NCBI GenBank assembly: GCA_964429215.1
Contig: CAYSAY010000004.1
Span: forward strand, 8,421 to 72,420
DNA: 64,000 nt
Source: an uncultured Gammaproteobacteria bacterium
Lineage (GTDB): Bacteria > Patescibacteriota > Microgenomatia > UBA8517
Direction of reading: 5' to 3'
Shown here piece after piece: positions 5,809-45,979 of this stretch. The position numbers were made by a program, and so were the translations under genes. The notes under the pieces were generated by a model. It was not told the DNA's origin, ran no database searches, and was given only the letters and a program-made list of their open reading frames with translations. The stretch's first letter is position 1; each line of letters opens with the position of its first letter.

Positions 5809-5820
5809 ATGATTAATAAT

Positions 5821-20713: not shown

Positions 20714-20714
20714 T

Positions 20715-27086: not shown

Positions 27087-30000
27087 CTAATTTAGATCAA
27101 TAATCCACCAGTTAAATTCAACATCGGTATCAATTGCTTCATTAAAACCAATTGTAAATTCGTTTAAATCTTTTGATTTGACATACAAAACTTTATTTTG
27201 GGTTGATGATACTGGCGTTACATATATCAAAGAATTAGTTTTTACTTTATTGTTTATAATTTTTAATTCAGTTGTGTTTGCTGTCAAAATTGCAGTTCCT
27301 GCAATTGAATTCGAATTTATTTGACCTTCAATAATTGTTGCAGATTCTGTTGCAATATCTGTAGTATTACTTCCAATAATTAAATTACCAAGAACCTTCA
27401 GATTGCCGGCAACCTCAAGGTTTCCTGTAAACAATGCGTTTCCGTCTGTGTCAATTTTGATTTTTCCAGCCATAATTTCAATTGGTGCTATTGCCAAAGA
27501 TTGGATGGATAAGGTGCCATCAATTGAGTCAAGCGATTTTGCAGTTAAGTTTTCTGCAACGAATAGGGAAGTGACAGTTGCATTTCCTGTTACAAAAAGA
27601 TTACTTGCGATAACGTCTGATATAGTTGCTGATGATGTTGCAGTATCAGTTGACCAATTAATTGCTTCTGCAAATAATGCTTGGTTGCCTTCAACTTCAG
27701 CCAAAAGTGCTTCAATCTCATCAAGTCTTTCAGACTCTATTTGATTTGCATATAATGTTCCAGAAATTGTTGCATCACCTGCAAATTCTGCATTTCCAGC
27801 TCCATCAATTACTGCAACTTCCTCATTATTATCTCCTTTTATAACAAGTTTTGAAGCAGTTTGGCTGTCATCAGGTTGCAAATCAATTATTAAATCAGTG
27901 TTAGCAATAGGGGAGATGATTTCAGATGTTTTCATACTTTCTATTTTTCGGTCTAATTCTTGAATTGCTCCAGCGAGTACGGCGGTTAATTTGCTGTAAT
28001 CTAGATTTTTATAACCTGCGGTGTCTGTGATGACAAGCTCTGGGAAAATCTGTTCGACATCTTGGGCAAGGAAACCAAGTGAGTTAGCGTCCCCTGTATT
28101 GTATTCGCCGTTCCAGGTGAAGCGAACGGGTTTGAGTTGTTGCACTAGTTCTAGATTGTCGGTAATGGAGGTAATATTTGTTTTTAAACGCGCATCTGAG
28201 AGGGCGGCAGTATTGTCGGTACAGGCCTCGTCGGCATTTAAGTCTAGACAAACATTACCCTTAACATCAAATAACCTGTCGGGAGTGGTGTCGCCTACAC
28301 CGACGTTGCCGGCATTAGGGTTGAGAGCGATATCTCGATAGGCAGTGCCAGGCTTCATTGCCTGAATCCAAGAATAATCCCCATCATGTACTCCAAAGAA
28401 AAGTGACTCGTCAGTGGACGTACCAGTGCCAGTGGTAAGACCCAACATACTAGACCCATTATATACAGAGGATGATCCGGTGATCTGCAATTTTGAACCA
28501 GGAGAAGTAACTCCGATGCCGACGTTGCCCCTCAGGGCTGTGGTCCCAATGCTCGTATTACCTAGTACGACCGTGTTTGTCCCAAGACCGGTGGCGTTGT
28601 AACCAATCACAATTTCGTTGGTATCGCCGTTTGCCAATGCTTTTGTCGAGTTACCAAGATATAGACTTGTATTGCTAGTCTGGTTGGCAGTTGCTCCACC
28701 TGAGATATATCTTCCAGCGTTTACACCGATTGCGTCGTTATAATAGCCAGTAGTGATGTTATAGAGAGCGTTTAGTCCTATAGCAGTGTTTTGATAACCA
28801 GTTGTATTTGATAGAAGAGTATTTATCCCTACTGCGGTGTTGTGCCAGCCAGTATTTACACTCAGAGCGTTTAAGCCTAAAGCAGTTGTACCAGGATCTA
28901 TAATCCCTGCTCTTGTTGTGCCATTGTAGATGACACCACCTGTCGTGTTGACTCTAGGCTCTTTGACACCTAGAGAGGCATCGGCAATATTATCGGTATA
29001 GGTAGTAGTGGTGTTGTCTGCAATAGTGGCTACCAATGCCAAAAGACTATTTAAGCCTCCTGCCGTAGATCGATATATCTTTCTAGATGTGACTGATGTA
29101 TCTGCTGAAACAGGAATAGCTGATAAATTGACCTGCTGATTGACAGGACTGACTACTGATGAGACTATGCCGCTTTCGGTTTCTCCGACAGCTGTGACAA
29201 AGGAGATGCGGTAGTAATAGGCTCCGTTAAGGTTGCCCGCCGTCGCATTGACGGCAACCGTAGGCGCTCCAGGGGCATCGACTTGATCGAAGCGTAGATG
29301 ACCATTTTTGAGATTGAGCTTTTGAGTAGGAGTTGTTGTCCCGATGCCGACGTTGCCAGAGTTGTTTATAGTCATTCTGTAGGATGGGGTAAATGTATTT
29401 CCGATAGCAGTAGTACTGTCAGTATGAAACGATATCGCGCCTCCTGATTGCCAGATGCCTGAGGCACCTCCAGCAGCTCTGAATGTCCACGCATTGGCGT
29501 CGGTAATAGCAGTTCCAGTATATTCAGCTCCTCCGGAAATCAAAGCTTGACCTCCGCCATCTGAAGTGAGATAGAGGCCTTCATTAGTTGTACTTTGTCT
29601 TAAGTTAAACCCAGATTTATTTGCAGCATTTGCTACTGTAACGAGCTGATCTGGAGCTGTTATCCCGATGCCGACGTTGCCAGAGGTAGGGGCCAAAAGT
29701 ATGTTGTTAAAGCCTGTCTGATTACCTTGGATTGATAAAGCACCAGTCGCACTAATTCTAGTAAAATCAAAACCACTTGTATCGCTAGCATTACTAAGTC
29801 TGAGAATGATTGCATCACTAGTAACTTGAGAAACAACGAGTTTACCACCCGGTGCAGTCGTTCCAATACCGACATTGCCAGTGGAATCAATCCTCATCCT
29901 TTCGTTTGTAGCGGAATTTCCTGTGCCAAAACGAATATCACCTGAATATCCAGATGTGCCACTTGTTCCGAACTCTATCCAAGATAAGTTGTTATATCCA

Positions 30001-33000
30001 TTATCTATTGCATACGAACCAGAGGCAATAGAAGAGTTTAATCTAATACCAGTATAACTCCAATCTGCAGAGGCTGAATTTTTCGAAGATGTCATGGTCA
30101 ATCCACGCCAAAGATTACTACCACCCTCTTTGTACTCGAATTTATCTAAGAAGCTATGGCTAGAATAGGTAGTACTGTTTGGTGCAGTAAAACCTTGAAG
30201 ATGGAGATTGGCGGCTGGAGCTGTGACTCCTATTCCAACATAACCTAAATCAGTCCCCGCACCACCTTTGATTGTCATCCTTGTAGCATTAGTATCACCG
30301 GTTGAGACCGTGACATCGTCTGTAGATGTGCCACCAGCCAGTACTAATCCTCCACCAGTTGAGTTAACTGTGTACGAACCAGTTCCTATACTAGTATTTG
30401 TGTAGTTGCCGACCGATACATGTTGCAAGGTAATTCCATCAGTTCTACCTGCGCCAACTAATCTAAAATCATCATCTCCAACCACATCTAATTGATAATT
30501 AGGTAAATTTGTTCCAACGCCAACTCTGCCTGCGTTTGTAATAACAAACTTTGGTGTACCTGAAGCACTGGCTGTAAACAAATCTCCCGCTTTGGTTTGG
30601 TTTACTATTAATGCAGCGTGACCTACATTTCCACCTGCGGGATTTTCTATTACCCAGTTTGTTGCTGTTAAATAATTAGCAAGTGTCGTTGGTGTTGCTG
30701 AAAATGTAATTGTAGATGCCCCCGCTGAATTTGCCAGAATTCCACCATCCATAAAGAGTGTGCCATCAATCTCGAGATCTTGTAATAATAAGTCGTTTGA
30801 TGCACTAATGTTTCCACCATGCGCTGTAGTTGCGATTCCTAACCTTGAATAAGTAGCGGCAGTTGTACCTCCAACTTGAAGAACTCCAGATATAGCTAAA
30901 TCATCACTTATATCAACTTCATCAGTTCCATCAGAAATAGCACCTCCTGAAAATGTTAAATTCCCAGCATTAATAACTGCTGAATTACCTAGATCTATTC
31001 CTGCAGTTGTAAATGTTCCTGAAAGAACTATACCTTTGTTTATAGTTCCTGTTGTATCAGCAATATCTATTCCATTTGTGATATTTCCTACAGTGTTTGA
31101 AATGTGTATTGCGTCCGTTATTCCTGAGTTTCCTGCACTATCAATTAACAATGCATCAGTTACTGCAGTTGTTCCTCCTACTGTTGTATCTAATTGTTGT
31201 AGTTTAAGTAGACTTTCAGTTGCAGTATCAGTAAATAATCCAACCACAGCATTATTAATTACTAAACCATTTTGATTAGTAGCAGATCCACCATTGTTAT
31301 TTATATTAAAAGTAAATGCATCAAGTGCTCCTGTTGGTGTCCATCCAAAGGTTGTTGGATTCACTCCCATTGCTAGAGTTAAAGAGGTGGATGGAGCTGT
31401 TAATTGATCCCATCTTAAAGCAGAGGCTGTAATCCCAACAGTACATGTCAATGTTCCTGTTGCATTAGCCACAGTACAACCAGTACTTCCAGATCCACCA
31501 CCTATTAAAATATCACCAGTTGCAGTTCCATTTAAGTTGAGTGCTCCTGAACCTTTTCCATCGATGGACATTGCGACATTTGTATCGGATCCAAATGCGG
31601 TTTGAGCAACTGTATTACCAGTTGCAGATGGCGTAAAAGTAAATCCGTTAGCTGCTGTTCCCGAAACTCTGGCTAAATTAAATACAGGTATACCTGACTG
31701 GGATGCTGTTAATATATTTTGGTTACCAGTTTCGTTGAAGATGGCAAGAGCTTTACCTGTTGAAATACCGTTGACATGTAGTTTGGATGTCGGACCTGTT
31801 GTCCCAATTCCTACATAACCATTATATTGGATAGTCAATCTTGCATCAGAAACATCTGCGTTTGACGAATCACCAGTACCATCAACAGTAAGGTGAAGAC
31901 TGCCTAGTCCAAAACCAACCGCCGTGTTTTCGAATATAATTCCTGCCTTTGCATAAGAATCTGAGGGTTGGGCCAAAGTTCTAAATCTCATACCTACAGC
32001 AGTTCCTGATCCTCCTGCATTTGCGGGGTTATCAAGTGTTAAGGCGTTGACAAACGCAGTCGTTGCTGGTGTTGAAACATGTAATGGTGATGCAGAGATT
32101 CTACTACCAATACCAACCCTACCAAGTGTTAATTCTGAAACTCCAAGTGTCGATGGGTAGGCTATTGTCCCTGTTGTTCCTGTGTCTAAATATGGTGTTG
32201 CAGTATCTGACCAGTATTGGTCTTGTGCTGCTGTTGATCTTCCATATATTCTATATGCGGTGAAGCCTGTTATGTCTGTCCATGCGACGGAGCAAGATCC
32301 TGTAGATCCAGTTGTAACTGTGCTAGAAGTTTCTGATGAAGCAATTGATTCAAGACCATTTCCGTCTGTGTAACTTACTTTATAATAATATGTACCTGCA
32401 ACAAGTGTTCCTCCTGTATCGGAACATGTAGCTACAACACCTGTAGGGGCTACAAGAGTACGAAGATAAGCACCACCTCCAGTGATTTGTAATGATGAAG
32501 ATGGAGTGGTTGTTCCAATTCCAACATTAGCACCTGAAAAATAAAACGCGTCGCTTGTGTTAAAACCAAATGTTCCTGCATCTGAATCTGTGGCTTCAAA
32601 GTTAAGTGTTGGATTGGCAGATTGATCACCGCCAAATAAAAATGTTCCTAAAGATTCATCAATAGAAAATATGGAGGCGGCAAGTGTTGTGCCACCTATG
32701 GCAAAGTCATTTGTTGTCGTCGTTGGTGATATTACTGCTGATGCAAGTGACCAGATTGAAGATCCTCCACCCGTCGTTATCGCAGCGTCTAAATCATCTA
32801 GAACATCCTGAACAGTAGTTGAAGCACTATTATCAAATTCGTCGAATGCACCGATTAAAGATGCTCCAGATGTGATATTGGTTGACCCAACATCGTTTAA
32901 GCCAATTGCTCCAATCGTTAAATCTGTGCCTGTTGCCAAGGTAAGACCTCCACCTGATGTAAAATCAGTGCCTGCGGCACCAATATTTGTAATAATTGAG

Positions 33001-34820
33001 TTTCCAGCATCTATTCCAGCAGTTGTAAATGTTCCAGAAAGTACAATACCTTTATCAATTGTTCCAGTAGTATCAGCAATATCAATTGCATTTGTAATAT
33101 TTCCTACGGTATTTGAAATATGAATTGCGTCCGTTATTCCAGAATTTCCTGCAGAATCAATTAATAATGCGTCTGTAACAGCAGTTGTACCAGTTCCTGT
33201 AGTGTCTAATTGTTGAAGTTTAAGTAATGATTCAGTAGCAACATCAGTAAATGCTCCTACAACTGCATTATTTATCACAAGTCCATTTTGTGCTGTTGTA
33301 GATCCACCATTATTGTTTACATTCATTGTAAATGCATCTAATGCTCCTGTTGGTGTCCATCCAAAGGTTGTTGGATTCACTCCCATTGCTAGAGTTAAAG
33401 CCCCATCAGGAGCCGTCAAGGCATTCCATTTTGATGTAGTAGCAAAAGTAGAGAAGTCAGTTACACAGTTTGTTTCTCCATCTCCTGTACAGAATTTTCC
33501 AGCTTCTACCGTGTCATCTGTTACTGCATTATTGTAAAGTGAGATTCCTGATGAAACATATAAATCTGCTCCAACTGTGGTAAGTCCTGTTGAATCAACT
33601 GAAAATTTGGAAGTAGGGGAAACACCACTTAAAAAATTAATAAAATTATAACCACTGGCTGCACTTGCAACTGTTCCAGAATAAAGAGAACCAGAAGTTA
33701 TGTTTGCATTAGTTGCATTTACGAATCCATTTGCAGATAGCCCAGGAGCTGCACCTTCAAAAGTTAAATCGAGTGTTCCAACACCATCTGGATTAATTGT
33801 TACCACACCATTACTTGTGTTTGGTGTGCTGATTGTCATTGCTAAGCCTTCAACTGCAAAAGTTCCAGAAGTTGATTGTAATTTTGGAGATGCGTTAGCA
33901 AGAACAAGTGTTCCTGAAGAATTTATGTAAGGTATTGTAGAAGTTCCTGTACCTGCTGGGAAGCCTTGAAGTGTTTCAGAGTTTAAAGCATAGGCAACTG
34001 TAGCAATCTGTATCCTAGGGGTCGCTTCTGCATCAGCCGCAACTGTAACTCCTACCCAGACTGCAGAGTTTTCAGAGAATACTGATGAAGCAATTTCAGC
34101 TCCACAGCTAGAACCTAAAAGAGTTGAAAATATTCCATCTTGATCAGGTGTTATGGAACAAGTTCCAGAGTTCCAAAGAGTAGTTCCACCTGAACTTGCA
34201 TCATATAACCTAAAAACTACGTTTGTGGCAGTTGTAATTGGGTTACCAACATTACTTGTCAGTCTTCCTTGAAAAGATAAAAATCTATTAGGTCTGGTTA
34301 ATGCTGCAGGGAAAGCAAGTGATCTATCAGCTGAATAAAAGACTTGATCATAGAAGGCATAACCAGATACTGAAGTGAATAGGATTAATATAGCTATGTG
34401 AATGTAAGTAGCCAAAGGATATGAGTGATATTTTTTGTACCAGTTTGGTCTTGTAAAGAACACTTTGAACAAAGCATTTTTAATTTTTGGTTTAGTCTCA
34501 AATTTTGCCAAAATTCTATCTTGCCATGACTTAATTATCTTCTTGTAGCTAGAAACGTTTTCAACACCTTCCATAAAGTTGTGTCCCATAAAGCTTGAAT
34601 AGCTACGAAGTGTAGAAAGCCTTCTGTTAAGTGTGGAAAGTGGGGTAGTTAATTTCTCAGTCTCAATATATTCTGTAACTAAGCTTCTGTCGATCTTTCT
34701 ATCCTTTGAAAAGTGTAAGAAATTGACGATATCAGACTTGTAATACTTCAAAGACTTCTGTGAAACACCACGAAGACTTAAATATTTCAAAAACTCTTCA
34801 ATTTTGTTTGTGGCAGTCAT
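27087..34820 (-). CDS. 2577-aa giant protein: N-terminal integrase-type SAM-like domain, one TM helix, huge Thr/Gly/Ala-rich fibre region with GNVGIGTTxPxxKL tail-fibre repeats, Peptidase_S74 intramolecular chaperone domain, ~290-aa C-terminal extension
   Basis: N-terminus IEEFLKYLSLRGVSQKSLKYYKSDIVNFLHFS...LSTLNRRLSTLRSYSSFM resembles the XerD N-terminal SAM-like fold. TM helix is YPLATYIHIAILILFTSVSGYAFY. Chaperone domain is LSDARLKTNITSITDNLELVQQLKPVRFTWNGEYNTGDANSLGFLAQDVEQIFPELVITDTAGYKNLDYSKLTAVLAGAIQELDRKIE. Confidence 0.75.
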   Translation of the reverse strand: MTATNKIEEFLKYLSLRGVSQKSLKYYKSDIVNFLHFSKDRKIDRSLVTEYIETEKLTTPLSTLNRRLSTLRSYSSFMGHNFMEGVENVSSYKKIIKSWQDRILAKFETKPKIKNALFKVFFTRPNWYKKYHSYPLATYIHIAILILFTSVSGYAFYDQVFYSADRSLAFPAALTRPNRFLSFQGRLTSNVGNPITTATNVVFRLYDASSGGTTLWNSGTCSITPDQDGIFSTLLGSSCGAEIASSVFSENSAVWVGVTVAADAEATPRIQIATVAYALNSETLQGFPAGTGTSTIPYINSSGTLVLANASPKLQSTSGTFAVEGLAMTISTPNTSNGVVTINPDGVGTLDLTFEGAAPGLSANGFVNATNANITSGSLYSGTVASAASGYNFINFLSGVSPTSKFSVDSTGLTTVGADLYVSSGISLYNNAVTDDTVEAGKFCTGDGETNCVTDFSTFATTSKWNALTAPDGALTLAMGVNPTTFGWTPTGALDAFTMNVNNNGGSTTAQNGLVINNAVVGAFTDVATESLLKLQQLDTTGTGTTAVTDALLIDSAGNSGITDAIHISNTVGNITNAIDIADTTGTIDKGIVLSGTFTTAGIDAGNSIITNIGAAGTDFTSGGGLTLATGTDLTIGAIGLNDVGSTNITSGASLIGAFDEFDNSASTTVQDVLDDLDAAITTGGGSSIWSLASAVISPTTTTNDFAIGGTTLAASIFSIDESLGTFLFGGDQSANPTLNFEATDSDAGTFGFNTSDAFYFSGANVGIGTTTPSSSLQITGGGAYLRTLVAPTGVVATCSDTGGTLVAGTYYYKVSYTDGNGLESIASSETSSTVTTGSTGSCSVAWTDITGFTAYRIYGRSTAAQDQYWSDTATPYLDTGTTGTIAYPSTLGVSELTLGRVGIGSRISASPLHVSTPATTAFVNALTLDNPANAGGSGTAVGMRFRTLAQPSDSYAKAGIIFENTAVGFGLGSLHLTVDGTGDSSNADVSDARLTIQYNGYVGIGTTGPTSKLHVNGISTGKALAIFNETGNQNILTASQSGIPVFNLARVSGTAANGFTFTPSATGNTVAQTAFGSDTNVAMSIDGKGSGALNLNGTATGDILIGGGSGSTGCTVANATGTLTCTVGITASALRWDQLTAPSTSLTLAMGVNPTTFGWTPTGALDAFTFNINNNGGSATNQNGLVINNAVVGLFTDTATESLLKLQQLDTTVGGTTAVTDALLIDSAGNSGITDAIHISNTVGNITNGIDIADTTGTINKGIVLSGTFTTAGIDLGNSAVINAGNLTFSGGAISDGTDEVDISDDLAISGVLQVGGTTAATYSRLGIATTAHGGNISASNDLLLQDLEIDGTLFMDGGILANSAGASTITFSATPTTLANYLTATNWVIENPAGGNVGHAALIVNQTKAGDLFTASASGTPKFVITNAGRVGVGTNLPNYQLDVVGDDDFRLVGAGRTDGITLQHVSVGNYTNTSIGTGSYTVNSTGGGLVLAGGTSTDDVTVSTGDTNATRMTIKGGAGTDLGYVGIGVTAPAANLHLQGFTAPNSTTYSSHSFLDKFEYKEGGSNLWRGLTMTSSKNSASADWSYTGIRLNSSIASGSYAIDNGYNNLSWIEFGTSGTSGYSGDIRFGTGNSATNERMRIDSTGNVGIGTTAPGGKLVVSQVTSDAIILRLSNASDTSGFDFTRISATGALSIQGNQTGFNNILLAPTSGNVGIGITAPDQLVTVANAANKSGFNLRQSTTNEGLYLTSDGGGQALISGGAEYTGTAITDANAWTFRAAGGASGIWQSGGAISFHTDSTTAIGNTFTPSYRMTINNSGNVGIGTTTPTQKLNLKNGHLRFDQVDAPGAPTVAVNATAGNLNGAYYYRISFVTAVGETESGIVSSVVSPVNQQVNLSAIPVSADTSVTSRKIYRSTAGGLNSLLALVATIADNTTTTYTDNIADASLGVKEPRVNTTGGVIYNGTTRAGIIDPGTTALGLNALSVNTGWHNTAVGINTLLSNTTGYQNTAIGLNALYNITTGYYNDAIGVNAGRYISGGATANQTSNTSLYLGNSTKALANGDTNEIVIGYNATGLGTNTVVLGNTSIGTTALRGNVGIGVTSPGSKLQITGSSSVYNGSSMLGLTTGTGTSTDESLFFGVHDGDYSWIQAMKPGTAYRDIALNPNAGNVGVGDTTPDRLFDVKGNVCLDLNADEACTDNTAALSDARLKTNITSITDNLELVQQLKPVRFTWNGEYNTGDANSLGFLAQDVEQIFPELVITDTAGYKNLDYSKLTAVLAGAIQELDRKIESMKTSEIISPIANTDLIIDLQPDDSQTASKLVIKGDNNEEVAVIDGAGNAEFAGDATISGTLYANQIESERLDEIEALLAEVEGNQALFAEAINWSTDTATSSATISDVIASNLFVTGNATVTSLFVAENLTAKSLDSIDGTLSIQSLAIAPIEIMAGKIKIDTDGNALFTGNLEVAGNLKVLGNLIIGSNTTDIATESATIIEGQINSNSIAGTAILTANTTELKIINNKVKTNSLIYVTPVSSTQNKVLYVKSKDLNEFTIGFNEAIDTDVEFNWWIIDLN
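30930..31420 (-). repeat. internal long direct repeat, copy B, of the giant gene
   Basis: Near-identical DNA to 32940..33430 at a constant 2010-bp offset; encodes RWDQLTAPSTSLTLAMGVNPTTFGWTPTGALDAFTFNINNNGG... Confidence 0.7.
32940..33430 (-). repeat. internal long direct repeat, copy A, of the giant gene
   Basis: e.g. ggtgtccatccaaaggttgttggattcactcccattgctagagttaaag is present in both copies. Confidence 0.7.
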
Positions 34821-35383: not shown

Positions 35384-35830
35384 ATGGAGCACGAAGAAGT
35401 AAAAAAAGAGAAAAATTACATTTGGCCTGTAGTAATTATACTAATACTACTACTTATCATGGGTCTCGTCATCTATTATCTGAAGTTTGCTGTTTTTTTA
35501 ACTCCTAAGGCAGATACTCCAAATTTAACTAACTCAATTTCGGTAAATAATTCATATATTTTTGCATCGCCCGTACGAGCAAGTGTTGATGGAGATTTAA
35601 TTAGAGTTACAGTATTTTTACTAGATGAAACAGGTTATGGTGTATTTGATAAAGAAGTTAAATTATCTAATAGTAATAGCTCAATTGTGGTTAATAATGT
35701 TCAAAGTTTGACTGACGATACTGGTAAAGCGATTTTTGACATTTCAGGAAAAAGTGCAGGAACGTATTTTCTTGAAGCTACAGTTGAAAATATAACACTT
35801 CCTCAAAGAGTTAAGATGGTTTTTTACTAG
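35384..35830 (+). CDS. membrane-anchored protein with Ig-like extracellular domain
   Basis: N-terminal TM helix, beta-rich C-terminal domain. Confidence 0.4.
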   Translation: MEHEEVKKEKNYIWPVVIILILLLIMGLVIYYLKFAVFLTPKADTPNLTNSISVNNSYIFASPVRASVDGDLIRVTVFLLDETGYGVFDKEVKLSNSNSSIVVNNVQSLTDDTGKAIFDISGKSAGTYFLEATVENITLPQRVKMVFY

Positions 35831-35831
35831 T

Positions 35832-36809
35832 ATGTTTAATTTACTTGCAGAAGTTGATGTCACAGCACAGATCGGTGCTGTAGTAGGGCCTACAGCTACC
35901 CCGACTGGGTCGGGGCAAGCAGCAACTCCGATACCAACATCAATCCCAACATTTAAACCTGTTTTTACACCTATTCCAACATTTACCCCGATTCAATCGG
36001 GGCCAACAATAGTTCCAGAAAAGCAGTTCAGAAAAGGATCATTTGCAATATATGGTTATGGCCCTGTTAATTCTGAAGTTAATTTAAATGGAATTGGGGT
36101 ATCTGCCAAAACAACTAGTGATAGCCAAGGATTTTTTGTGTTTAGCCCAATTTACTCTACATCTGCATTTTATCCTGAGCTTTGTATCCAAGCAGTTGAT
36201 AAGGATAAAAAAACAACTCAGCCTTCTTGCATTCCTGCTTTTCCTGCTACAAATAAACTTCCTTCTGTCGTTGGTCCTGTACTTCTTTCTCCTACCATAT
36301 CGCTTAGCAACAACAAAGTAGTTGTAGGAAGTAGTGCACATGCTTCAGGCATGACAATTCCAAATGCAGAAGTAGATATATATATAGCCAAAAAGGATCA
36401 AAGGCTATCACTTGTCAAGACTGCCAATGCCTATTACATACCAACAATAAAAACAAAGTCAAACGATGAAGGTCAATTTGAAATTAGTTTGCCAACAGGG
36501 GAGATATCAGGGGCAAATTTTCAGGCAGAATATAAAATTTTCGTTTCTAATAAATATGGTGAGGACTTGTCTTCAAAAAGTAACACCTTAAGTTTTGCTG
36601 TTATAACCTCTGCAAAGTCACTACTAGAAAGAATAATAGAATACTTAATAGCAAATAAAATAAGAGTGGTAGTGTTACTTGAGGCAATGGTAGCTATAAT
36701 TCTTGGTTTGATGGCCTTAAAATCAACTACACATCGCCACAAAAAGCATTCTGAAAAGGATTATGACGAAGTTGAATCTCATTTGGAGCAGTTAAAAAAA
36801 TTATCTTGA
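35832..36809 (+). CDS. Pro/Thr-rich surface protein with C-terminal TM anchor and basic tail
   Basis: ATPTGSGQAATPIPTSIPTFKPVFTPIPTFTPIQ low-complexity region; C-terminal RVVVLLEAMVAIILGLMALK then HRHKKH. Confidence 0.4.
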   Translation: MFNLLAEVDVTAQIGAVVGPTATPTGSGQAATPIPTSIPTFKPVFTPIPTFTPIQSGPTIVPEKQFRKGSFAIYGYGPVNSEVNLNGIGVSAKTTSDSQGFFVFSPIYSTSAFYPELCIQAVDKDKKTTQPSCIPAFPATNKLPSVVGPVLLSPTISLSNNKVVVGSSAHASGMTIPNAEVDIYIAKKDQRLSLVKTANAYYIPTIKTKSNDEGQFEISLPTGEISGANFQAEYKIFVSNKYGEDLSSKSNTLSFAVITSAKSLLERIIEYLIANKIRVVVLLEAMVAIILGLMALKSTTHRHKKHSEKDYDEVESHLEQLKKLS

Positions 36810-37177
36810 AGACTTTGGATAACCTTTTCTTGTGTTGTCTACAAAAATAATAATAGCGACTGCCAATAACACATAATATGTGTATGGGCTATTGATAATT
36901 GATACTATAAATTGTGTCATTTTTTTATTTTGGCAAACCGCATTAAAATAAGCAACAAAATCGCAAAAATAATTCCAAGTATTGTAGCTAAATTGTAAAT
37001 ATCTATTTTTTCCATATATCTATAAATCTCTTGCTAATTTTAATGATATCACGAAAAATATTAATCCATTTAGAACACCTGCAAATGATTTAATTGAATA
37101 ATCTGAATTCGATATAAAGGCAAACACTAGCCAGGCAATAGAGAAGTTGGATGAAAATTCCGAAACTAGTTTCCTTG

Positions 37178-38182
37178 TTACTTAGGTAAATTATCTTTGA
37201 ATTTATTCTTTAGGGCTTCAAGCTCTGAGATTTCTTCTTCAAGTTTTTCTTCAAGTACAACTTGTCTTGCTTTAACCTTTTGTGAGATTAAGAATGCTAC
37301 AAACCCTATGATTAATATTGTAAATATTACAAGTAAGATTACAGTTACAGGAACTATCCAAATAAATCTTGTTTCAGTTAGTGCTTTGCCACTCTCACCA
37401 TAGTTTGCAGTTAATTCAACAGCATATTTACCAAACATCCATTGTTTACCTATTTTTGATTCATAAGCTCTCTTTGCACTAGGGAAAATGTTGTAGTCAT
37501 CAATTGTAACTCTTGAAACTTCTTTACCCATCCAGTCAGTTAGAGTAATTTGACCCTTAGGATTTATGTGGTAACCACCTTGATTTAAGATATCAAAGCT
37601 AACTTTAACTGGTCCGAATTCAAGGAAACTTGGAACTTTAAATTTGTCTATAAATGCGTATTCAACTACTGGTCCATTAACTCTAATGCTCAAAAGTCCA
37701 ACTATTCTAGGTGCTACTGCAGTCTGGCTTCCATCAGCATCTGCTGTCTGTGATAGTTGCCCTGTTTGTTCGAATATAATTGCTACATATTTTCCACCCG
37801 GTTTTGCGTCATTAGGAACTTTAACTTTAAAATTTACCTTTAAAACGTCACCTGATGCAATTGATGCACGGTCATAAGGTAATTCCACCCAATCGTTTGG
37901 TTGGTCTTCAAGTAGGATAGGCGAGCCATCATTTCCTGTAACTATAAAATCAACAGCTTTAATATTTCCTGAAATTGGTGAAATTGATTCGTTAAAAAAC
38001 TTAATCTGTAAATTCTCAGACTTTCCTGGGTCAATAGCTACTGTTTGTCTTGCTGGTGCTACAACTAAAGGAATTCTTGCCTGGGCAAGAGATTCCTTAG
38101 TTAATAATGAAAAGTTAATAGTTAATAATGCAAACACGAAAACTGCAATTGCAATTGTTTTATTGTTTTTTAATTTTTTCAT
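37178..38182 (-). CDS. cell-surface protein: signal peptide, beta-rich ectodomain, C-terminal TM anchor and cytoplasmic coiled coil
   Basis: N-terminal signal, C-terminal WIVPVTVILLVIFTILIIGFVAFLI, then charged coiled coil. Confidence 0.5.
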   Translation of the reverse strand: MKKLKNNKTIAIAVFVFALLTINFSLLTKESLAQARIPLVVAPARQTVAIDPGKSENLQIKFFNESISPISGNIKAVDFIVTGNDGSPILLEDQPNDWVELPYDRASIASGDVLKVNFKVKVPNDAKPGGKYVAIIFEQTGQLSQTADADGSQTAVAPRIVGLLSIRVNGPVVEYAFIDKFKVPSFLEFGPVKVSFDILNQGGYHINPKGQITLTDWMGKEVSRVTIDDYNIFPSAKRAYESKIGKQWMFGKYAVELTANYGESGKALTETRFIWIVPVTVILLVIFTILIIGFVAFLISQKVKARQVVLEEKLEEEISELEALKNKFKDNLPK

Positions 38183-38229
38183 AATTTTTAATTCTTAACT
38201 ATTAATTCTTAATTCTTAATTACCTTCGT

Positions 38230-39723
38230 TTAGAAGGTAGGAACAGCTGTATATTTAACCTTATTAAAGTAAAATCCTGCTGGCTGTGTTGCTGTAATAT
38301 CTATTCTATAACAAACATAGGCACTTGATGAGTCAACTGGTCCTGCATTTGTCATCAAATGTGCGGTTGATGCAGCTCTATCTTCTGATGCCTCTTGGTC
38401 CGCAAATTGCTTAGCATTAAATGTTCCTGCGCTAGTATTGTATTCAAATATGCCATCAGTACCTGTTACGTTTTGCAATGAATATCCAAGTCCTGGGAAT
38501 GATGTAGGGTCTGAACCCCAGTCTCTTAATGTTTGGTGAGTACAGCCAGTTCCGTCACATACAGTGTCTTGAATACAATCTACAGATTCTCCAGCTCCTG
38601 CACCAGTACATGCAACGCCATCTTTACCCATCTGATCGTTTTCTTCTGCGTACACCTTGTATCCTGCTGTTGAATTAGTTGAAACTGTTAGTTGGTGATT
38701 TGTGTTATGAGTTGCCGCTAAATATGTTGATGATAATGTACCCCAGGCAACAGATGTCGCGGTAGTATCAGGTGAACTCGCGGTTCTTGTTATTCCGCAA
38801 TATGAACCAGAATCAGCAGAAATTCCTGCAATTGTAAATGATAATGTTTCATCAACTGTTGCAGAGATCAATACTCCTTCAATAGGGGAAACTACGACAT
38901 CTGATTGGTCAAGTGTATTATCTCCACCATCTCTTGACTTAATATTTATCTGATACGAATCTGCTTGGCCTTGAGTATGGGTTGTAAGCGGTGCAGGATT
39001 AATTAAACCTGGTGCTGAATCAATTGTAATTGTTAGTGTGGTTCCTGCTGCGCAAGTCGTAGTTGCTCTATTGATTTGTAATAAGTGATCAGTTGATGCG
39101 GTTCCTGCAGTTAACGATGCAACTGTCCAGTTAACATCAGTACAACCTGTAATTGTGATATCAGAGGTTGTCATAGGACCAATATCAAATCCGTTTGTAG
39201 CTTTTGTTGCTGCAGTATCTGGAATACCATCGTTTGTTTTTCCAGTTACGTCAACCGCAGGTATTGTAATTAACAAGTCCCCGTTTGCTGGAATTACTGA
39301 AGTTGTTACAAATGAGAGAATTAAACTTCCTGATTGTGTTGCAACTACGTAATCTGTTGCTAATAATGTGGAAGATAGAGCCGTTGACATATTAAAAGTA
39401 TTTGCCCCAATGATGTTTGCGACAGAATAGTTCACGTTTCCGTTACATCCGTTTTCAGTTGCGTTAGGAAAACAAACTGTGTCTTTTGGAAAGAGGTGAT
39501 TGGTATTATTGTCTGCATTTCCTGAAGCATCAGTTGTAACTGTTGAGGAACCAGAAGTTCCTGAAGCTACACCACCTTTATAAGAAAATCTTGCATTTGA
39601 TAAGGTTGCAGAAGCAGAAGTAAAGTTTGCTGAATAAGTTTTTTTGGAAGGTAGTACAAAACGATACACAAGACCACAAAACACTAAAATTAAAGCAAAA
39701 GTAAGTATTTTGTTTTTGGTCAT
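38230..39723 (-). CDS. secreted Thr-rich protein, C-terminal domain paralogous to the 241-aa protein
   Basis: Signal peptide; C-terminus ...KQFADQEASEDRAAS...YRIDITATQPAGFYFNKVKYTAVPTF, compare ...RQFADRSNTES...YKVNIGTGQPSGVYQNVITFIAIPSY. Confidence 0.5.
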   Translation of the reverse strand: MTKNKILTFALILVFCGLVYRFVLPSKKTYSANFTSASATLSNARFSYKGGVASGTSGSSTVTTDASGNADNNTNHLFPKDTVCFPNATENGCNGNVNYSVANIIGANTFNMSTALSSTLLATDYVVATQSGSLILSFVTTSVIPANGDLLITIPAVDVTGKTNDGIPDTAATKATNGFDIGPMTTSDITITGCTDVNWTVASLTAGTASTDHLLQINRATTTCAAGTTLTITIDSAPGLINPAPLTTHTQGQADSYQINIKSRDGGDNTLDQSDVVVSPIEGVLISATVDETLSFTIAGISADSGSYCGITRTASSPDTTATSVAWGTLSSTYLAATHNTNHQLTVSTNSTAGYKVYAEENDQMGKDGVACTGAGAGESVDCIQDTVCDGTGCTHQTLRDWGSDPTSFPGLGYSLQNVTGTDGIFEYNTSAGTFNAKQFADQEASEDRAASTAHLMTNAGPVDSSSAYVCYRIDITATQPAGFYFNKVKYTAVPTF

Positions 39724-40655
39724 TTTTTTAAGATTGGTAATTTAAATATCCTACGATATCTAAATGTTGTCAATAGGAATATAAGTATCGCAACTAACAT
39801 AAATGGAAAAACGTAAGTCACAGTTTCTGCTTTATAAATTTTAGTATCATCATCCATCTGAAATTCTAATTTATGGGTAATTTTACCTAAAAATATGTTA
39901 TGAGTTGCTTTGCATTCATCTAAGTTTTCATCTTTCAAACATAATAAATTTCTGTTTGATCCTGAAAGAATATTTAAGTTTGCAAGCTTTAAAGTTTCAT
40001 CACCAGAAATAATTTTGCCATTAGGTTTCCAAAATGAATTTCCATTGTTTCTTAAAACAAGGGTATAGGGTATAGGGTTTAGGAAGGAGTCGATGAGTTT
40101 AGGAGCTGTAAATTCAATAATTTCAGCAGATTTTTTAGGGTTACCATCTTTTGAAACTGTAACCAGTATGTTTGAACCTATTATAGTTTTATAAAAAGTA
40201 CTTGCCTGACCCAAAACATCTGTAGGGACTGTTGTCTCAATTATTAAAGTCAAAAAATGATCGGTTTCTTCAGTGCCTTCCGGTGGATTTATGGTTACTG
40301 TAAAATCAGTTCTGTTTCCGTTTTTAAGAGAGAAAGCATCTTGATTGAATTTAACCCAATCTGGAGCCACTTCGTCAGTAAGTTCAACTGTACCATCAGT
40401 TGAATCTGGGATAAAGTATAAAATTTTTGGAATTAAAATTACATCCCCACCATCGTTTGTTATAGTAAATACTTGTTTAATCTCTTTACCAGGAGCAATC
40501 ATAACCTCAAAAAGGGGAGGGGTGATAGAAAGATTTATTGCTTGAGCGCTAACTGTTTTAGGGTATAGGGTGTAGGGTATAGCGTATAAACAGGACAATA
40601 ATACAAATATTTTTATCAATCTAAACCCTAAACCCTTTTCCTTGTAGTTTTTCAT
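39720..40655 (-). CDS. cell-surface protein with signal peptide and C-terminal TM anchor
   Basis: N-terminal signal; C-terminal FPFMLVAILIFLLTTF followed by RYRRIFK. Confidence 0.5.
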   Translation of the reverse strand: MKNYKEKGLGFRLIKIFVLLSCLYAIPYTLYPKTVSAQAINLSITPPLFEVMIAPGKEIKQVFTITNDGGDVILIPKILYFIPDSTDGTVELTDEVAPDWVKFNQDAFSLKNGNRTDFTVTINPPEGTEETDHFLTLIIETTVPTDVLGQASTFYKTIIGSNILVTVSKDGNPKKSAEIIEFTAPKLIDSFLNPIPYTLVLRNNGNSFWKPNGKIISGDETLKLANLNILSGSNRNLLCLKDENLDECKATHNIFLGKITHKLEFQMDDDTKIYKAETVTYVFPFMLVAILIFLLTTFRYRRIFKLPILKK

Positions 40656-40656
40656 A

Positions 40657-41382
40657 TTAATAAGATGGTATTGCTATAAAAGTAATCACATTTTGATAAA
40701 CTCCACTAGGTTGTCCAGTTCCGATATTCACTTTATAAGTAATAGTAGCAGTTCTACTTCTTCCTACATTTCCAGAAGTCATAATTGTTGCAGGGCTTTC
40801 TGTGTTACTCCTATCAGCAAACTGCCTGTAATATGTTGAGTTGGTAAAGTCTGTAGATACATCATCCCCAGTCATGTTAAATCCAAACCCGTATTTGGCT
40901 GAAGATGTCCAGACTGCAGCTGCAGTCTCAGAGCAAGTAGTATCACAAAGAGTATCAATAATAGTTCCTGATCCTGTCCTTGTTTTTAATGGATTATTTT
41001 CAGAAGCTTTTACAGAATATCCTCCAGCTCCACCAGCAGAAACAACTATAGTTGAGGTTGTTGTAACTGGTGTATTTGGAGATAAAGTTCCAAAGTTCTT
41101 TTGAATGTCACTTATTGAAAATGAAAATGGAATAATCGAATTTATGTATTGGAAACCTGCCTTAACTCTGTATCCTGTCGATGAATATTCTCCCGGTCCT
41201 GTTTGTCCTAGCGTCGTATTTAATCTGTAATTAGAGGAAGTTGGAATCCCTGCACCAGAGTTAAAATTAGGAAATATAATACGGTAGTTTGCGGACTCAA
41301 CTCTTTCCTGTGCGTAGACAGAAAAAGTACTAAGAACTAAGTACAAAGTACTTAGAAAAAGAATTTTAAGATTTTTTCTCAT
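40657..41382 (-). CDS. secreted protein sharing its C-terminal domain with the 497-aa protein
   Basis: Signal peptide plus paralogous C-terminal ~60 aa. Confidence 0.5.
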   Translation of the reverse strand: MRKNLKILFLSTLYLVLSTFSVYAQERVESANYRIIFPNFNSGAGIPTSSNYRLNTTLGQTGPGEYSSTGYRVKAGFQYINSIIPFSFSISDIQKNFGTLSPNTPVTTTSTIVVSAGGAGGYSVKASENNPLKTRTGSGTIIDTLCDTTCSETAAAVWTSSAKYGFGFNMTGDDVSTDFTNSTYYRQFADRSNTESPATIMTSGNVGRSRTATITYKVNIGTGQPSGVYQNVITFIAIPSY

Positions 41383-41704
41383 TTTCTAATACCTCAATTT
41401 GGCTTTCCAATACTTTTTCTTCTGTTTTTAGTTCTTTAATTACTTCCTCTGCCTTAACTTTCTTTACCTCTAATAGTCGAATTCGATGAAAAAGAAATGC
41501 TATTAAAGCTAATGAAATTAAAAAATAAACAATAATTAAAAATGAATAGTCAAATACTTCAACCCATGTAATTACAAATATCGTAGTAACAATTACGGTA
41601 GCAAGGTCAATCCACTTTCGAACCTTAATATAAATTTCATTCTTTTTAAATACAAAATGAGCTGAAGTATAAAGAATAATAATAATTGCAAGTATATAGA
41701 GCAT
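41366..41704 (-). CDS. small membrane protein with C-terminal coiled coil
   Basis: Two TM helices, EEVIKELKTEEKVLESQIEVLENEKK. Confidence 0.4.
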   Translation of the reverse strand: MLYILAIIIILYTSAHFVFKKNEIYIKVRKWIDLATVIVTTIFVITWVEVFDYSFLIIVYFLISLALIAFLFHRIRLLEVKKVKAEEVIKELKTEEKVLESQIEVLENEKKS

Positions 41705-44226: not shown

Positions 44227-44853
44227 GTGGAGGATTTTATTCAAAAAAATCAAAAGCTTTTAATTTTTATTCTTCTAGGGCTTATCTTAATCGGTTTTGG
44301 AGTACTGACTTATAAAATAAATATCTTTTCATCTGGAGATACTGTTGAGGTCTTAAATTCTACTACAGAAAGTCAGAACATATCTTCTGACGGCAATCAA
44401 GAAATTATTGTTGAGATTTCTGGAAGTGTTGAAAATCCAGGGGTCTACAAATTAAAACTAGGGGACAGAATCGATGACCTTTTAGTAATTTCTGGTGGAC
44501 TTTCGTTAAATGCTGATAGGGACTGGGTTACAAAAAATGTTAATAGGGCAGCCAAATTAATTGACGGTCAAAAGTACTACATATATCACTCGGGAGAAAT
44601 AACTGCTAAAGACAATGGGGGTATCAAACTAGATCAGGGTGTTTTAGGGTCTAAAACACAAGACACTAAAGGTTTGGTAAATATTAACACAGGAAGCCAG
44701 TCAGAATTGGAAAAACTAGTAGGAATTGGCCCTGTTTACGCCCTAAACATAATTGAACACAGACCTTACTCAAACACAGAAGAGTTGCTTACAAAAGATA
44801 TTTTAAATAAAAATGTCTACGAAAAAATTAAAAATTCCATTACAGCAAATTAG
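44227..44853 (+). CDS. comEA: competence protein ComEA (helix-hairpin-helix DNA-binding)
   Basis: N-terminal TM helix, C-terminal INTGSQSELEKLVGIGPVYALNIIEHRP HhH motif. Confidence 0.85.
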   Translation: MEDFIQKNQKLLIFILLGLILIGFGVLTYKINIFSSGDTVEVLNSTTESQNISSDGNQEIIVEISGSVENPGVYKLKLGDRIDDLLVISGGLSLNADRDWVTKNVNRAAKLIDGQKYYIYHSGEITAKDNGGIKLDQGVLGSKTQDTKGLVNINTGSQSELEKLVGIGPVYALNIIEHRPYSNTEELLTKDILNKNVYEKIKNSITAN

Positions 44854-45898
44854 TTTCCTTTTAATAATTCTTTTAATTTTTGTAAGATATTATTCAACTA
44901 GACCTATTTTTAAAAATGGAGATTTAGTAAAAATTACATCAAAAGTTTACAACGAACCACTTGTTTTTGACAAACAACAATATTTTAAAATCCAGAGTTT
45001 AAAAGTATATCTTCCAAAATATCCAACAGTTAATTACGGCGATATAGTAGTTATTACAGGAACTATAAGTGGAGATAAATTAGTAAGTCCCAAACTTTTA
45101 GAAATCAAAGAGACAAGTAATGTTTTCTACAAAATGCGGCAAAAATTAATCTTCTTTTATAAGTCCAATCTGCCTGAACCAATGGCAAGTTTGGTAGCAG
45201 GTATAGTAATAGGCTCAAAAAACATGCCAGAAGAATTCTGGGATAAATTAAAAGCAACAGGAACAGCCCATGTTGTGGTTGCTTCGGGTACTAACGTCTC
45301 ATTACTTGCAGGATTCTTAATTTCTAGCCTCACAATTTTTCTTTCCCGCAAATATGCGGTTTTCATAGCGATTGCGGGAATCGGAATTTATGTAATTATT
45401 TCGGGTTTTGACGCCCCAATCGTGCGTGCTGGAATAATGGGTTGCATTTTATTTTTAGGTCAAGAAAAGGGAAGACTAATAAATACTTGGAGAATTCTGA
45501 TTTACTCTGCACTTATAATGCTTCTTGTAAAACCAGTTTGGATTACAGATCTTGGCTTCATTCTGTCATTTGTGGCAACTATTTCTTTACTTATTTTTCA
45601 AAAACCAATTGATTCAAGGCTAAAATTCGTTCCAAACATCTTAAGGGAGGGATTGTCGACTTCACTTGCTGCACAAATTGGGGTTGCTCCAATTATTTTT
45701 GTCACTTTTGGCAAGTTTAATATACTTTCGCCAATAATTAATGCCCTTATACTGTGGACGGTTTCCTTTATAATGATTCTGGGTGCATTAAGTGGGGTAA
45801 TAGGTTTAATCGTGCCTATATTTGGTAAAATGATGCTATATGTTTTATATCCTTTGCTTTGGTACTTCGTAAACATAGTAGGAATTTTCAATTTTTAA
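44813..45898 (+). CDS. comEC: ComEC/Rec2 N-terminal plus competence channel domain (split gene, part 1)
   Basis: MASLVAGIVIGSKNMPEEFWDKLKATGTAHVVVASGTNVSLLAGFL competence-domain signature; polytopic. Confidence 0.75.
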   Translation: MSTKKLKIPLQQISFLLIILLIFVRYYSTRPIFKNGDLVKITSKVYNEPLVFDKQQYFKIQSLKVYLPKYPTVNYGDIVVITGTISGDKLVSPKLLEIKETSNVFYKMRQKLIFFYKSNLPEPMASLVAGIVIGSKNMPEEFWDKLKATGTAHVVVASGTNVSLLAGFLISSLTIFLSRKYAVFIAIAGIGIYVIISGFDAPIVRAGIMGCILFLGQEKGRLINTWRILIYSALIMLLVKPVWITDLGFILSFVATISLLIFQKPIDSRLKFVPNILREGLSTSLAAQIGVAPIIFVTFGKFNILSPIINALILWTVSFIMILGALSGVIGLIVPIFGKMMLYVLYPLLWYFVNIVGIFNF

Positions 45899-45979
45899 TT
45901 TGCAATTTTCATTCAATTTTCATTTGACCATTGTTTCATTGTAAATTCATTGTAAATTGGAAATTGATAACTGTAAATT

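Follow-up and report, generated by a model that had tools for sequence, protein, structure and literature searches.

A probable Pam-type pilus operon in a Microgenomates bacterium, with two pairs of subunit and membrane-anchored chaperone-like genes

The 64,000-nucleotide (nt) stretch considered here, which we call the window, belongs to contig CAYSAY010000004.1 of assembly GCA_964429215.1, a record named for an uncultured gammaproteobacterium and placed by GTDB in the Microgenomatia (Patescibacteriota; UBA8517). Our subject is a cluster of five co-directional minus-strand open reading frames (ORFs) at 41704..37178, which encode a small membrane protein of 112 amino acids (aa), a secreted protein of 241 aa, a membrane-anchored protein of 311 aa, a secreted protein of 497 aa and a second anchored protein of 334 aa (Table 1). 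The genes lie where a first-pass annotation of the sequence had placed them, with the small gaps and overlaps that it described. We suggest below that they probably represent the Pam pilus, a system first described in 2026 from ultra-small bacteria of the candidate phyla radiation (CPR) (bioRxiv 10.64898/2026.03.03.709456), in a layout particular to the Microgenomates.

The five genes and their products

The genes are closely packed. Following the direction of transcription, the four junctions are a 17-nt overlap (112-aa/241-aa), a 1-nt gap (241-aa/311-aa), a 4-nt overlap (311-aa/497-aa) and a 47-nt gap (497-aa/334-aa). Signal-peptide-like N-termini can be read in the sequences (e.g., VYA/QE, VSA/QA and SLA/QA), and the 311-aa and 334-aa proteins combine a signal peptide with one C-terminal hydrophobic helix followed by basic residues. 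The two secreted proteins end in ...AIPSY (241 aa) and ...AVPTF (497 aa), where inspection of the sequences finds no LPXTG motif, hydrophobic stretch or basic tail; nor does any protein of the cluster have an LPXTG-type C-terminus. A Pfam scan of the five proteins returned nothing above threshold, and Pfam and NCBIfam scans found neither a sortase nor an usher-like protein in the cluster or its conserved neighbourhood. Promoter and terminator scans gave site counts not above those of shuffled controls and do not inform the limits of the operon.

The two secreted proteins are related through their C-terminal parts. BLASTP aligns them with 31% identity over 171 columns (E=5e-13), and the common region is an entire C-terminal domain of about 160 aa, represented here by a profile of 163 positions (A5). 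The sharing had been noticed in the first-pass annotation, which put its length at about 60 aa; the relationship holds, and the module extends to the whole domain. In the 241-aa protein the domain (residues ~80-241) comes after a signal peptide and three short strands that form a conserved N-terminal region (~27-80). An alignment of this family (A2) contains 53 invariant columns, among them C146 and C150, which are the two invariant cysteines of the shared domain, W158 and a C-terminal Q-P-x-G-x-Y-x-N motif.

Remote similarity links the domain to models of Pam proteins. The 241-aa protein matches NCBIfam NF058579 (CPR_pilus_PamT) over residues 5-241 of 241 with E=1.5e-14, although at 54 bits against a cut-off of 240, and NF058581 (CPR_Pam_pilin_C) with E=1.3e-9, at 38 bits against a cut-off of 55. 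Among homologs of the 497-aa protein, 10 of 32 match CPR_Pam_pilin_C. The domain is also very widespread: its profile finds 2136 protein clusters at 50% identity with E<=1e-3, and 995 at 1e-10. When 149 representatives found by the profile were scanned together with the window's 241-aa protein, 123 of the 150 matched NF058581 (best 7.9e-14) and 71 matched the PamT model (best 1.2e-16). The domain forms the extreme C-terminus in all 150 listed profile matches, and the proteins listed are mostly ~210-290 aa or ~465-550 aa long, with some of intermediate length and one of 820 aa. In some proteins the Pam-type C-terminal domain is preceded by Laminin_G_3 (lectin-like), right-handed beta-helix, fn3 or BNR/PSII_BNR domains, a variety of front domains reminiscent of large WxL proteins, whose host-binding N-termini vary. 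In addition, two members weakly match SCPU, the archaic chaperone-usher pilin family (E=0.011).

Hundreds of close homologs of the 497-aa protein, all of them unnamed proteins, occur in Woesebacteria, Roizmanbacteria and other Microgenomates; one from Roizmanbacteria GW2011_GWA2_35_19 is 59% identical. An AlphaFold2 model (mean predicted local distance difference test, pLDDT, 76.9), read together with the family alignment, gives the protein the architecture of PamA: an N-terminal beta-sandwich, a linker and a C-terminal beta domain. The linker, GVLISATVDET, is the part of greatest interest. S287, A288 and T289 are invariant in the family, D291, E292 and L294 are nearly so, and V[LF][VI]SAT[VI]DE was one of the two most conserved stretches picked in the family. 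In the monomer model pLDDT falls below 50 at residues 285-290, which coincide with this most conserved stretch (V-L-I-S-A-T-V-D-E). The C-terminal domain is modelled with moderate confidence (pLDDT 50-86), as would be expected of a fold that lacks its complementing strand.

The 311-aa and 334-aa proteins are full-length paralogs (22% identity over 300 columns, E=3e-11). That they carry a signal peptide and a C-terminal transmembrane (TM) helix had been recognised before, and their paralogy is added here. The 334-aa protein is modelled confidently (pLDDT 86.3), with a first beta-sandwich at residues 39-168, a second at 176-276 and a long C-terminal helix at 279-329 that comprises the TM helix and a conserved, charged cytoplasmic helix. 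The 311-aa protein has the same layout of signal peptide, two beta-sandwich domains and C-terminal TM helix, ends in a short basic tail and scores 234.9 bits against the hidden Markov model of the anchored family. N-terminal helices appear in the AlphaFold models at residues 3-23 and 7-25.

Structure searches connect the 334-aa model with two groups of proteins. The best Foldseek match in the PDB is 9i25_C, the WxL-interacting protein (WxLIP) of E. faecium bound to a long WxL protein (E=1.3e-11, TM-score 0.57), and a second WxLIP, 9i1y, follows with E=5e-11; both matches span the two domains. Next come the pilus chaperones CfaA, YadV, CsuC, FimC, DraB, CupB2, Caf1M and SafB, with E of ~1e-8 to 1e-7, TM-scores of 0.5-0.6 and a probability of 1.0. 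A likeness to RbmA, at rank four, was set aside, since its TM-scores are 0.26-0.36 as against 0.5-0.6 for the WxLIP and chaperone matches. At the sequence level, 19 of 38 members of the anchored family match Pfam PF06030 (WxLIP_PGBD, formerly DUF916; best E=1.1e-7), and none matches DUF3324. We also compared the family with ten real WxLIP proteins from plasmid WxL clusters of Enterococcus, Melissococcus, Lactiplantibacillus, Bacillus, Vagococcus, Lactococcus and Listeria. Here hhalign gives 93.7% probability (E=1.9e-7) over 124 columns of domain 1, and a second, co-linear match at the end of domain 2. On the combined evidence of Foldseek, Pfam and hhalign, the anchored proteins are thus remote homologs of CscA/WxLIP, the partner protein of WxL clusters, and they have the fold and the anchor described for the Pam chaperones PamC and PamD. 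The analogy with WxL/Csc clusters drawn in the first-pass annotation is therefore borne out for the anchored partner.

One of the two anchored proteins has a further distinguishing feature. The cytoplasmic tail of the 334-aa protein (residues ~304-334; 37178-37270, minus strand) is strongly conserved, with Q307, L310, E311, L314, E317, E322, K325, K327, K329 and D330 near-invariant, and that of its 311-aa paralog is only short and basic. One of the two chaperone-like proteins may thus have a partner in the cytoplasm or pair through a coiled coil.

Conservation across the Microgenomates and neighbouring genes

The conservation of the cluster was followed by tblastn of the window proteins against 81 loci, of which 80 came from a scan of species-representative genomes and one is a fragment from ENA (L001). 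All scan loci with an informative title are from Microgenomates or Patescibacteria. Many other records with this Microgenomates-type cluster (L005, L011, L013, L017 and more) are titled 'uncultured Gammaproteobacteria', 'Pseudomonadales', 'Nevskiaceae' or 'Omnitrophota'; judged by their gene content, these look like mislabelled names or bins.

The four core genes keep their order and orientation (small subunit, chaperone, large subunit, chaperone), each being found in 66-81 of the 81 loci, and the large subunit is 42-79% identical across loci. The window contains exactly two copies of the shared domain and two of the anchored family, and related loci mostly do likewise. The common order is a polytopic membrane protein, the small subunit, a chaperone, the large subunit, a chaperone and a homolog of the window's 325-aa protein, followed on the other strand by a Big_1 protein. 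In Roizmanbacteria a 3.5 kb insert containing comEA, comEC, an MBL-fold gene and a paaX-like gene separates the two subunit-chaperone pairs, and each pair is itself unbroken. Because the pairs stay intact even where they are parted, each chaperone would appear to serve the subunit encoded before it. The small and the large secreted protein with their common domain, together with the membrane-anchored partners, behave as the co-evolving set envisaged in the first-pass annotation, for which absence from related genomes would have been damaging.

The first gene of the cluster is less constant. The 112-aa protein has about three hydrophobic helices and a charged coiled-coil tail, and gives only weak, sub-threshold Pfam and NCBIfam matches (DivIC, FtsL-like coil). 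The gene is detected in the closest relatives only (12 of 81 loci). In Woesebacteria and Roizmanbacteria loci its place upstream of the small subunit is taken by polytopic membrane proteins of 207-283 aa, to whose central part the 112-aa protein aligns weakly (20-26% identity); a role for it can be proposed from gene position only.

Downstream of the cluster, on the opposite strand, lies the gene for the 325-aa protein, which has a Pro/Thr-rich N-terminus, a region with weak, sub-threshold Ig (immunoglobulin)- and CarboxypepD_reg-type matches, a C-terminal TM helix and a charged tail; Pfam and NCBIfam scans assign it to no family. In the Woesebacteria and Roizmanbacteria loci inspected, its homolog directly follows the 334-aa homolog on the same strand and has a signal peptide and a C-terminal TM helix. 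In the clade of the window, by comparison, the gene is inverted and the signal peptide is lost, its place being taken by a Pro/Thr-rich stretch of ~70 aa. The possibility that the protein is a third chaperone paralog was rejected, since only the charged tail aligns (10% probability). The adjoining 148-aa Big_1 protein is a conserved neighbour, which in 60 of 81 loci is present beside the homolog of the 325-aa protein. In the window the 325-aa ORF begins 1 nt past the stop of the 148-aa gene in another reading frame, and a frameshift fusion of the two is conceivable.

Beyond these genes lies a giant ORF of 2577 aa with a Peptidase_S74 (endosialidase chaperone) domain, outside the five-gene cluster, whose homolog adjoins the cluster in 56 of 81 loci. 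The GC content of the ORF is 0.40-0.46, compared with about 0.32 in its surroundings. A phage-integrase SAM-like domain is matched by the first ~100 residues, a region that in other genomes is a separate ORF of 170-181 aa (L040 12491-13036; L077 12614-13126), and the window ORF may therefore be a fusion or have a mis-joined start.

The two tiny overlapping hydrophobic ORFs that the first-pass annotation had reported downstream of the cluster both exist. Together with a third of 35 aa, which is conserved nowhere, they fall within 36801-37127 (minus strand), inside the 369-nt spacer that follows the cluster. L004 alone has counterparts of the 39-aa and 32-aa ORFs, overlapping in the same way (64% and 81%), and the stretch that holds them shrinks to ~90 nt in L002, the single close relative inspected. 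The two ORFs are probably not part of the system.

On the other side of the cluster, beyond leuS, lie the DNA-uptake genes comEA (HHH_3/SLBB), comEC (Competence) and an MBL-fold gene (44227-46819, plus strand). The same three genes and the paaX-like gene occupy 4708-6970 in L015 and 4528-6920 in L040, both from Roizmanbacteria. As these genes either adjoin the pilus cluster or sit inside it, the two are persistently linked. Elsewhere the window encodes several sensor kinases (dCache, CHASE4, HAMP, PAS), a response regulator, a RhuM-family gene (E=6e-103) and a Fic-domain gene (5449-7443, minus; 11931-12941, minus; 15194-16246, plus; 18165-23045, plus), and two large proteins without a Pfam match, of 1492 aa (7449-11927) and 867 aa (2825-5428).

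Table 1. Features of the cluster and its surroundings (window coordinates), and number of loci, out of 81, with a tblastn match to the window protein
Feature	Position	Strand	Basis	Loci
112-aa small membrane protein, first gene of the cluster	41366..41704	-	ORF	12
241-aa secreted small subunit (candidate), PamT-like	40657..41382	-	ORF; NCBIfam match	81
311-aa membrane-anchored chaperone-like protein	39720..40655	-	ORF; paralogy to 334-aa protein	66
497-aa secreted large subunit (candidate), PamA-like two-domain pilin	38230..39723	-	ORF; AlphaFold2 model	81
497-aa protein, N-terminal beta-sandwich, residues ~31-280	38884..39633	-	AlphaFold2, pLDDT about 90	
497-aa protein, inter-domain linker, residues ~281-293, candidate donor strand	38845..38883	-	conservation	
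497-aa protein, C-terminal domain (shared Pam-pilin module), residues ~294-497	38233..38844	-	BLASTP, profile	
334-aa membrane-anchored chaperone-like protein, WxLIP/PapD-like	37178..38182	-	ORF; AlphaFold2, Foldseek, hhalign	75
Two tiny overlapping hydrophobic ORFs (39 aa, 36801..36920; 32 aa, 36917..37015)	36801..37015	-	ORF	
325-aa protein, C-terminal TM helix and charged tail, candidate filament anchor/terminator	35832..36809	+	PamR-like position	63
148-aa N-terminally anchored Ig-like protein, conserved neighbour	35384..35830	+	Pfam Big_1, E=4.2e-9	60
2577-aa giant protein, tail-fibre-like	27087..34820	-	Pfam Peptidase_S74, E=1.1e-16	56
comEA				57
leuS				29

A Pam-type pilus and the alternative readings

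The Pam pilus provides the closest match for these genes and their products. In the Saccharimonadia parasite Candidatus Mycosynbacter amalyticus, two filaments have been solved by cryo-electron microscopy (cryo-EM), and the system was found to consist of the pilins PamA, PamB and PamE, the single-domain tip subunit PamT, the chaperones PamC and PamD, which are PapD-like with an unusual C-terminal TM helix, and the RbmA-like anchor PamR (10.64898/2026.03.03.709456). In a Pam pilin the C-terminal domain takes up the linker of the subunit next to it; this donated linker and the domain's groove are the most conserved parts, and paired cysteines are reported. A tail-fibre-like protein is consistently co-localised with pam operons, and ATP synthase genes are also neighbours. 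The same preprint lists remote PamA homologs in Microgenomatia, one example from Roizmanbacteria having ~21% similarity, and is the basis of the NCBIfam models NF058579 and NF058581 used above. The invariant linker of the 497-aa protein, with its low pLDDT, fits the preprint's account of a conserved donated linker and groove, as it shows the same pattern of conservation.

We therefore consider that the cluster is probably the operon of a Pam-type donor-strand pilus in a Microgenomates (CPR/Patescibacteria) bacterium. Gene anatomy, the homology of the shared domain to the Pam pilin models, the WxLIP/PapD-like fold of the anchored proteins and the strong synteny are shown by the data above; polymerisation, strand exchange, subunit order and function we infer from the cryo-EM results for M. 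amalyticus, as follows. All products would be exported through Sec. The 241-aa (PamT-like) and 497-aa (PamA-like) proteins would be the filament subunits, with a common C-terminal acceptor domain, and the larger of the two would be built of an N-terminal beta-sandwich, a strand that serves as linker and an incomplete Ig-like domain. The 311-aa protein would act as chaperone for the 241-aa subunit and the 334-aa protein for the 497-aa subunit, each having the two-Ig PapD/WxLIP fold and a C-terminal helix in the cytoplasmic membrane. A strand of the chaperone itself would cap the open groove of the subunit's C-terminal domain, until the linker of an incoming large subunit, acting as donor strand, displaced it by donor-strand exchange. 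A linear fibre of large subunits would in this way grow from the membrane with the small subunit at its distal tip, and the downstream 325-aa protein, which is C-terminally anchored, may end and tether the fibre. The most likely use of such a fibre would be attachment to a host or partner cell.

Several points weigh against this interpretation. All of the NCBIfam scores fall under their curated cut-offs (54 versus 240 bits and 38 versus 55), and the window's 497-aa protein itself has no NCBIfam match at E<=1, so that membership in the Pam system rests on remote homology. Searched by fold, the 497-aa model retrieved nothing beyond generic beta-sandwiches, and the likeness to the solved PamA and PamB structures (PDB 25PZ and 25QA) is based on their description and on the NCBIfam models, not on coordinates. 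Nor did the PDB yield a meaningful match to sequence and profile queries built on the 497-aa protein, the families of the 241-aa and anchored proteins, or a DUF916-positive homolog; neither the WxLIP chains nor 25PZ and 25QA were reached in this way. The cluster has one large pilin, as against PamA, PamB and PamE in M. amalyticus; a Pfam scan that covered ~20 of the window's roughly 45 other ORFs found no ATP synthase genes; and the literature searched reports no filament for any Microgenomates organism.

The Pam connection changes two earlier statements. The first-pass annotation had raised the possibility of an undescribed system of non-covalent surface display, in which secreted proteins dock onto anchored partners. 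The system is not undescribed, because the NCBIfam models for PamT and the Pam pilin C-terminal domain are matched and the preprint already gives the architecture (10.64898/2026.03.03.709456); what is new here is a Microgenomates layout of a kind described in 2026, in a group from which remote homologs had been reported. The architecture itself stands, and the preprint reads it as a donor-strand-exchange filament, not as static docking. Homology to pilins or to sortase substrates had been named as evidence against the display idea: Pam pilins are matched, and sortase substrates are not.

The alternative with the most in its favour is display of the kind attributed to WxL/Csc clusters, in which the two secreted proteins would dock one-to-one on the anchored WxLIP-like proteins and serve as adhesins without polymerising. 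In Csc clusters CscA is a WxLIP (DUF916, DUF3324 and TM helix), CscB a small WxL protein, CscC a large WxL protein and CscD an LPXTG protein (PMC1534035, PMC9772566, PMC10599100); the WxL domain (PF13731) has two Trp-x-Leu motifs, with Asp-x-Arg-Gly before the first, and the small LPXTG protein CscD is frequent although not obligatory. The anchored proteins of the window are true WxLIP homologs, their best structural match is the crystal complex of a WxLIP with a long WxL protein (9i25), and the gene content mirrors that of a minimal WxL cluster, with a small shared-domain protein, a large one and a DUF916/DUF3324/TM protein (PMC9772566, PMC10599100).

The secreted proteins tell less in favour of this alternative. 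No match to Pfam WxL (PF13731) was obtained in 209 family members (59 + 150), which agrees with the absence of a WxL motif noted in the first-pass annotation; the shared domain has no W-x-L motifs, with Tyr or Phe at the candidate positions, and the solved WxL chain is absent from the top structural matches of the 497-aa model. For profile comparisons we took real WxL clusters from plasmids (including L082, L084-L086, L088 and L090-L093). With 16 small and 8 large WxL sequences, hhalign gives P of only 0.047-0.23 for the subunits. The best local match between the 16 small WxL proteins and the 241-aa family is at the extreme C-terminus of both, where G-x-Y-x-x-x-[IL]-T-W-x-L...P-end (WxL) is aligned with G-x-Y-x-N-x-I-T-[FY]-x-A-x-P-end (241-aa family). 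Its P is 0.009 with 8 sequences and 0.047 with 16, and is non-significant, so that the profile-profile check that had been proposed for the shared module yields no significant link to WxL (P about 0.05). The first WxL motif region aligns to a conserved G-Y-x-V strand with P of about 0.05-0.2. Blocks rebuilt from the machine-read supplement of Siezen et al. 2006, in which only the first-motif and C-terminal blocks were legible, are both aligned by hhalign, in co-linear order, to the places expected in the CPR domain (P=0.24 and 0.30).

There is, then, a weak co-linear resemblance in which G-x-Y-x-x-x-[IL]-T-[FYW] ends both families and G-[YW]-x-[VL] occurs earlier, and the local hhalign score of the C-terminal motif was reached by none of 150 column-permuted controls. 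A third weak co-linear resemblance is seen by eye: most small WxL proteins of Enterococcus and Melissococcus start, past the signal peptide, with the conserved strand Y-x-[ST]-[ND]-G-x-[IV]-x-F, and the CPR small subunit begins with S-x-N-Y-x-I-x-F and the large with S-A-N-F. Because PF13731 is unmatched and the hhalign links are weak, we do not assign the secreted pair to the WxL domain family. The shared domain instead matches models of Pam pilins, and cryo-EM shows the Pam relatives as filaments; conservation in the large protein peaks in the linker between its domains, which fits a donated strand better than a static dock; and the cluster has no LPXTG protein, whereas most WxL clusters include one. 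We consider docking without polymerisation unlikely on these grounds.

The remaining explanations fare much worse. A sortase-assembled pilus of the Gram-positive type, or a set of MSCRAMM-like adhesins with Ig-like domains that are covalently linked or wall-anchored, is very improbable: the matches are generic beta-sandwich similarities (TM-score about 0.15, identity 6-15%), the ...AIPSY and ...AVPTF ends lack an LPXTG motif, a hydrophobic stretch and a basic tail, and the scans found no sortase in the cluster or its conserved neighbourhood. Least probable of all is a chance co-location of unrelated secreted and membrane proteins without joint function. Nothing was found in favour of it: the genes overlap or nearly abut, the four core genes keep their order and orientation in 66-81 of 81 loci, and a locus typically has two shared-domain and two anchored proteins. 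The lack of LPXTG motifs and sortase, together with the strong synteny, effectively excludes both.

Microgenomates, which are ultra-small and have not been cultured, are thought to live attached to other cells by means that are largely unknown. The cluster is a candidate for an attachment fibre that is compact (four to six genes) and strongly conserved. To the Pam system it would add a simpler arrangement, in which a single small and a single large subunit each have a tethered chaperone of their own; such a layout should be easier to reconstitute.

Comparison with known systems

The likeness to the Pam system of M. amalyticus extends over most of the locus. Both have a small subunit of ~240 aa without an N-terminal sandwich and a subunit of ~500 aa with a sandwich, linker and C-terminal domain; the acceptor domain common to the secreted subunits matches Pam models; two-Ig chaperones with a C-terminal TM helix are present (modelled for the 334-aa protein, with the same layout in the 311-aa protein); a giant tail-fibre-like protein is nearby; and the host lineage, Microgenomatia, is already listed as having remote PamA homologs. 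The differences are that the similarity is remote, with NCBIfam scores below cut-off; that there is one large pilin gene and no recognisable PamB or PamE; that two subunit-chaperone pairs alternate, each forming a unit; that a polytopic membrane protein heads the Microgenomates operon; that no similarity was detected for the candidate anchor of 325 aa, whose gene is inverted in the window clade; and that the neighbours are comEA/comEC and leuS, not ATP synthase. Filaments have been seen in M. amalyticus, whereas the Microgenomates system is known from genes alone.

The chaperone-usher pili of Gram-negative bacteria (Pap, Fim, CFA/I, Csu, Caf1 and Saf) share with the window the two-Ig boomerang fold of the chaperone and the proposed principle, in which an incomplete Ig-like subunit domain is completed by a donated strand. 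The window system differs in having no usher and no outer membrane, and its chaperones are membrane-anchored rather than soluble in the periplasm. Its subunits possess an extra N-terminal domain, and the donor would be an internal linker and not an N-terminal extension. Apart from the two weak SCPU matches (E=0.011), no sequence similarity is detectable.

In WxL/Csc clusters the partner protein is homologous to the anchored proteins of the window by Pfam, hhalign and Foldseek, and the cluster logic is alike, with a small shared-domain protein, a large one bearing the domain at its extreme C-terminus, and a TM-anchored partner of tandem Ig domains. WxLIP is also predicted to insert a strand into the WxL domain. 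The window differs in that Tyr or Phe replaces Trp at the two motif positions (if the motifs correspond) and Asp-x-Arg-Gly is absent; in that it has no LPXTG partner, which the plasmid WxL clusters fetched mostly carry; and in that it has two anchored partners, where WxL clusters most commonly have one. WxL proteins are, moreover, thought to bind peptidoglycan and not to polymerise.

Finally, we raise the possibility, which we hold tentatively and rate somewhat short of an even chance, that an ancient system of chaperones and subunits in single-membrane bacteria gave rise to both Pam pili and the WxL/Csc clusters of Bacillota, which would be its two branches. On this view WxLIP would be a chaperone of the PapD type held in the membrane, and the WxL domain would correspond, in diverged form, to the C-terminal domain of Pam pilins. 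For the chaperones the link is well supported; for the subunits there is only the shared cluster logic and the weak co-linear motif resemblance. The connection of Pam chaperones with WxLIP is absent from the literature searched, and the words WxL and DUF916 do not occur in the Pam preprint (10.64898/2026.03.03.709456). The link between Pam-type chaperones and the WxLIP of lactic acid bacteria, enterococci and Listeria provides a testable bridge from a CPR filament to a Firmicute surface system that matters for virulence and gut colonisation, and it bears on how WxL proteins work. If the two are indeed one system, Pam pili would not be exclusive to CPR bacteria in origin, and WxL proteins, whose attachment has been debated since 2006, would be handled by strand complementation and might form short polymers.

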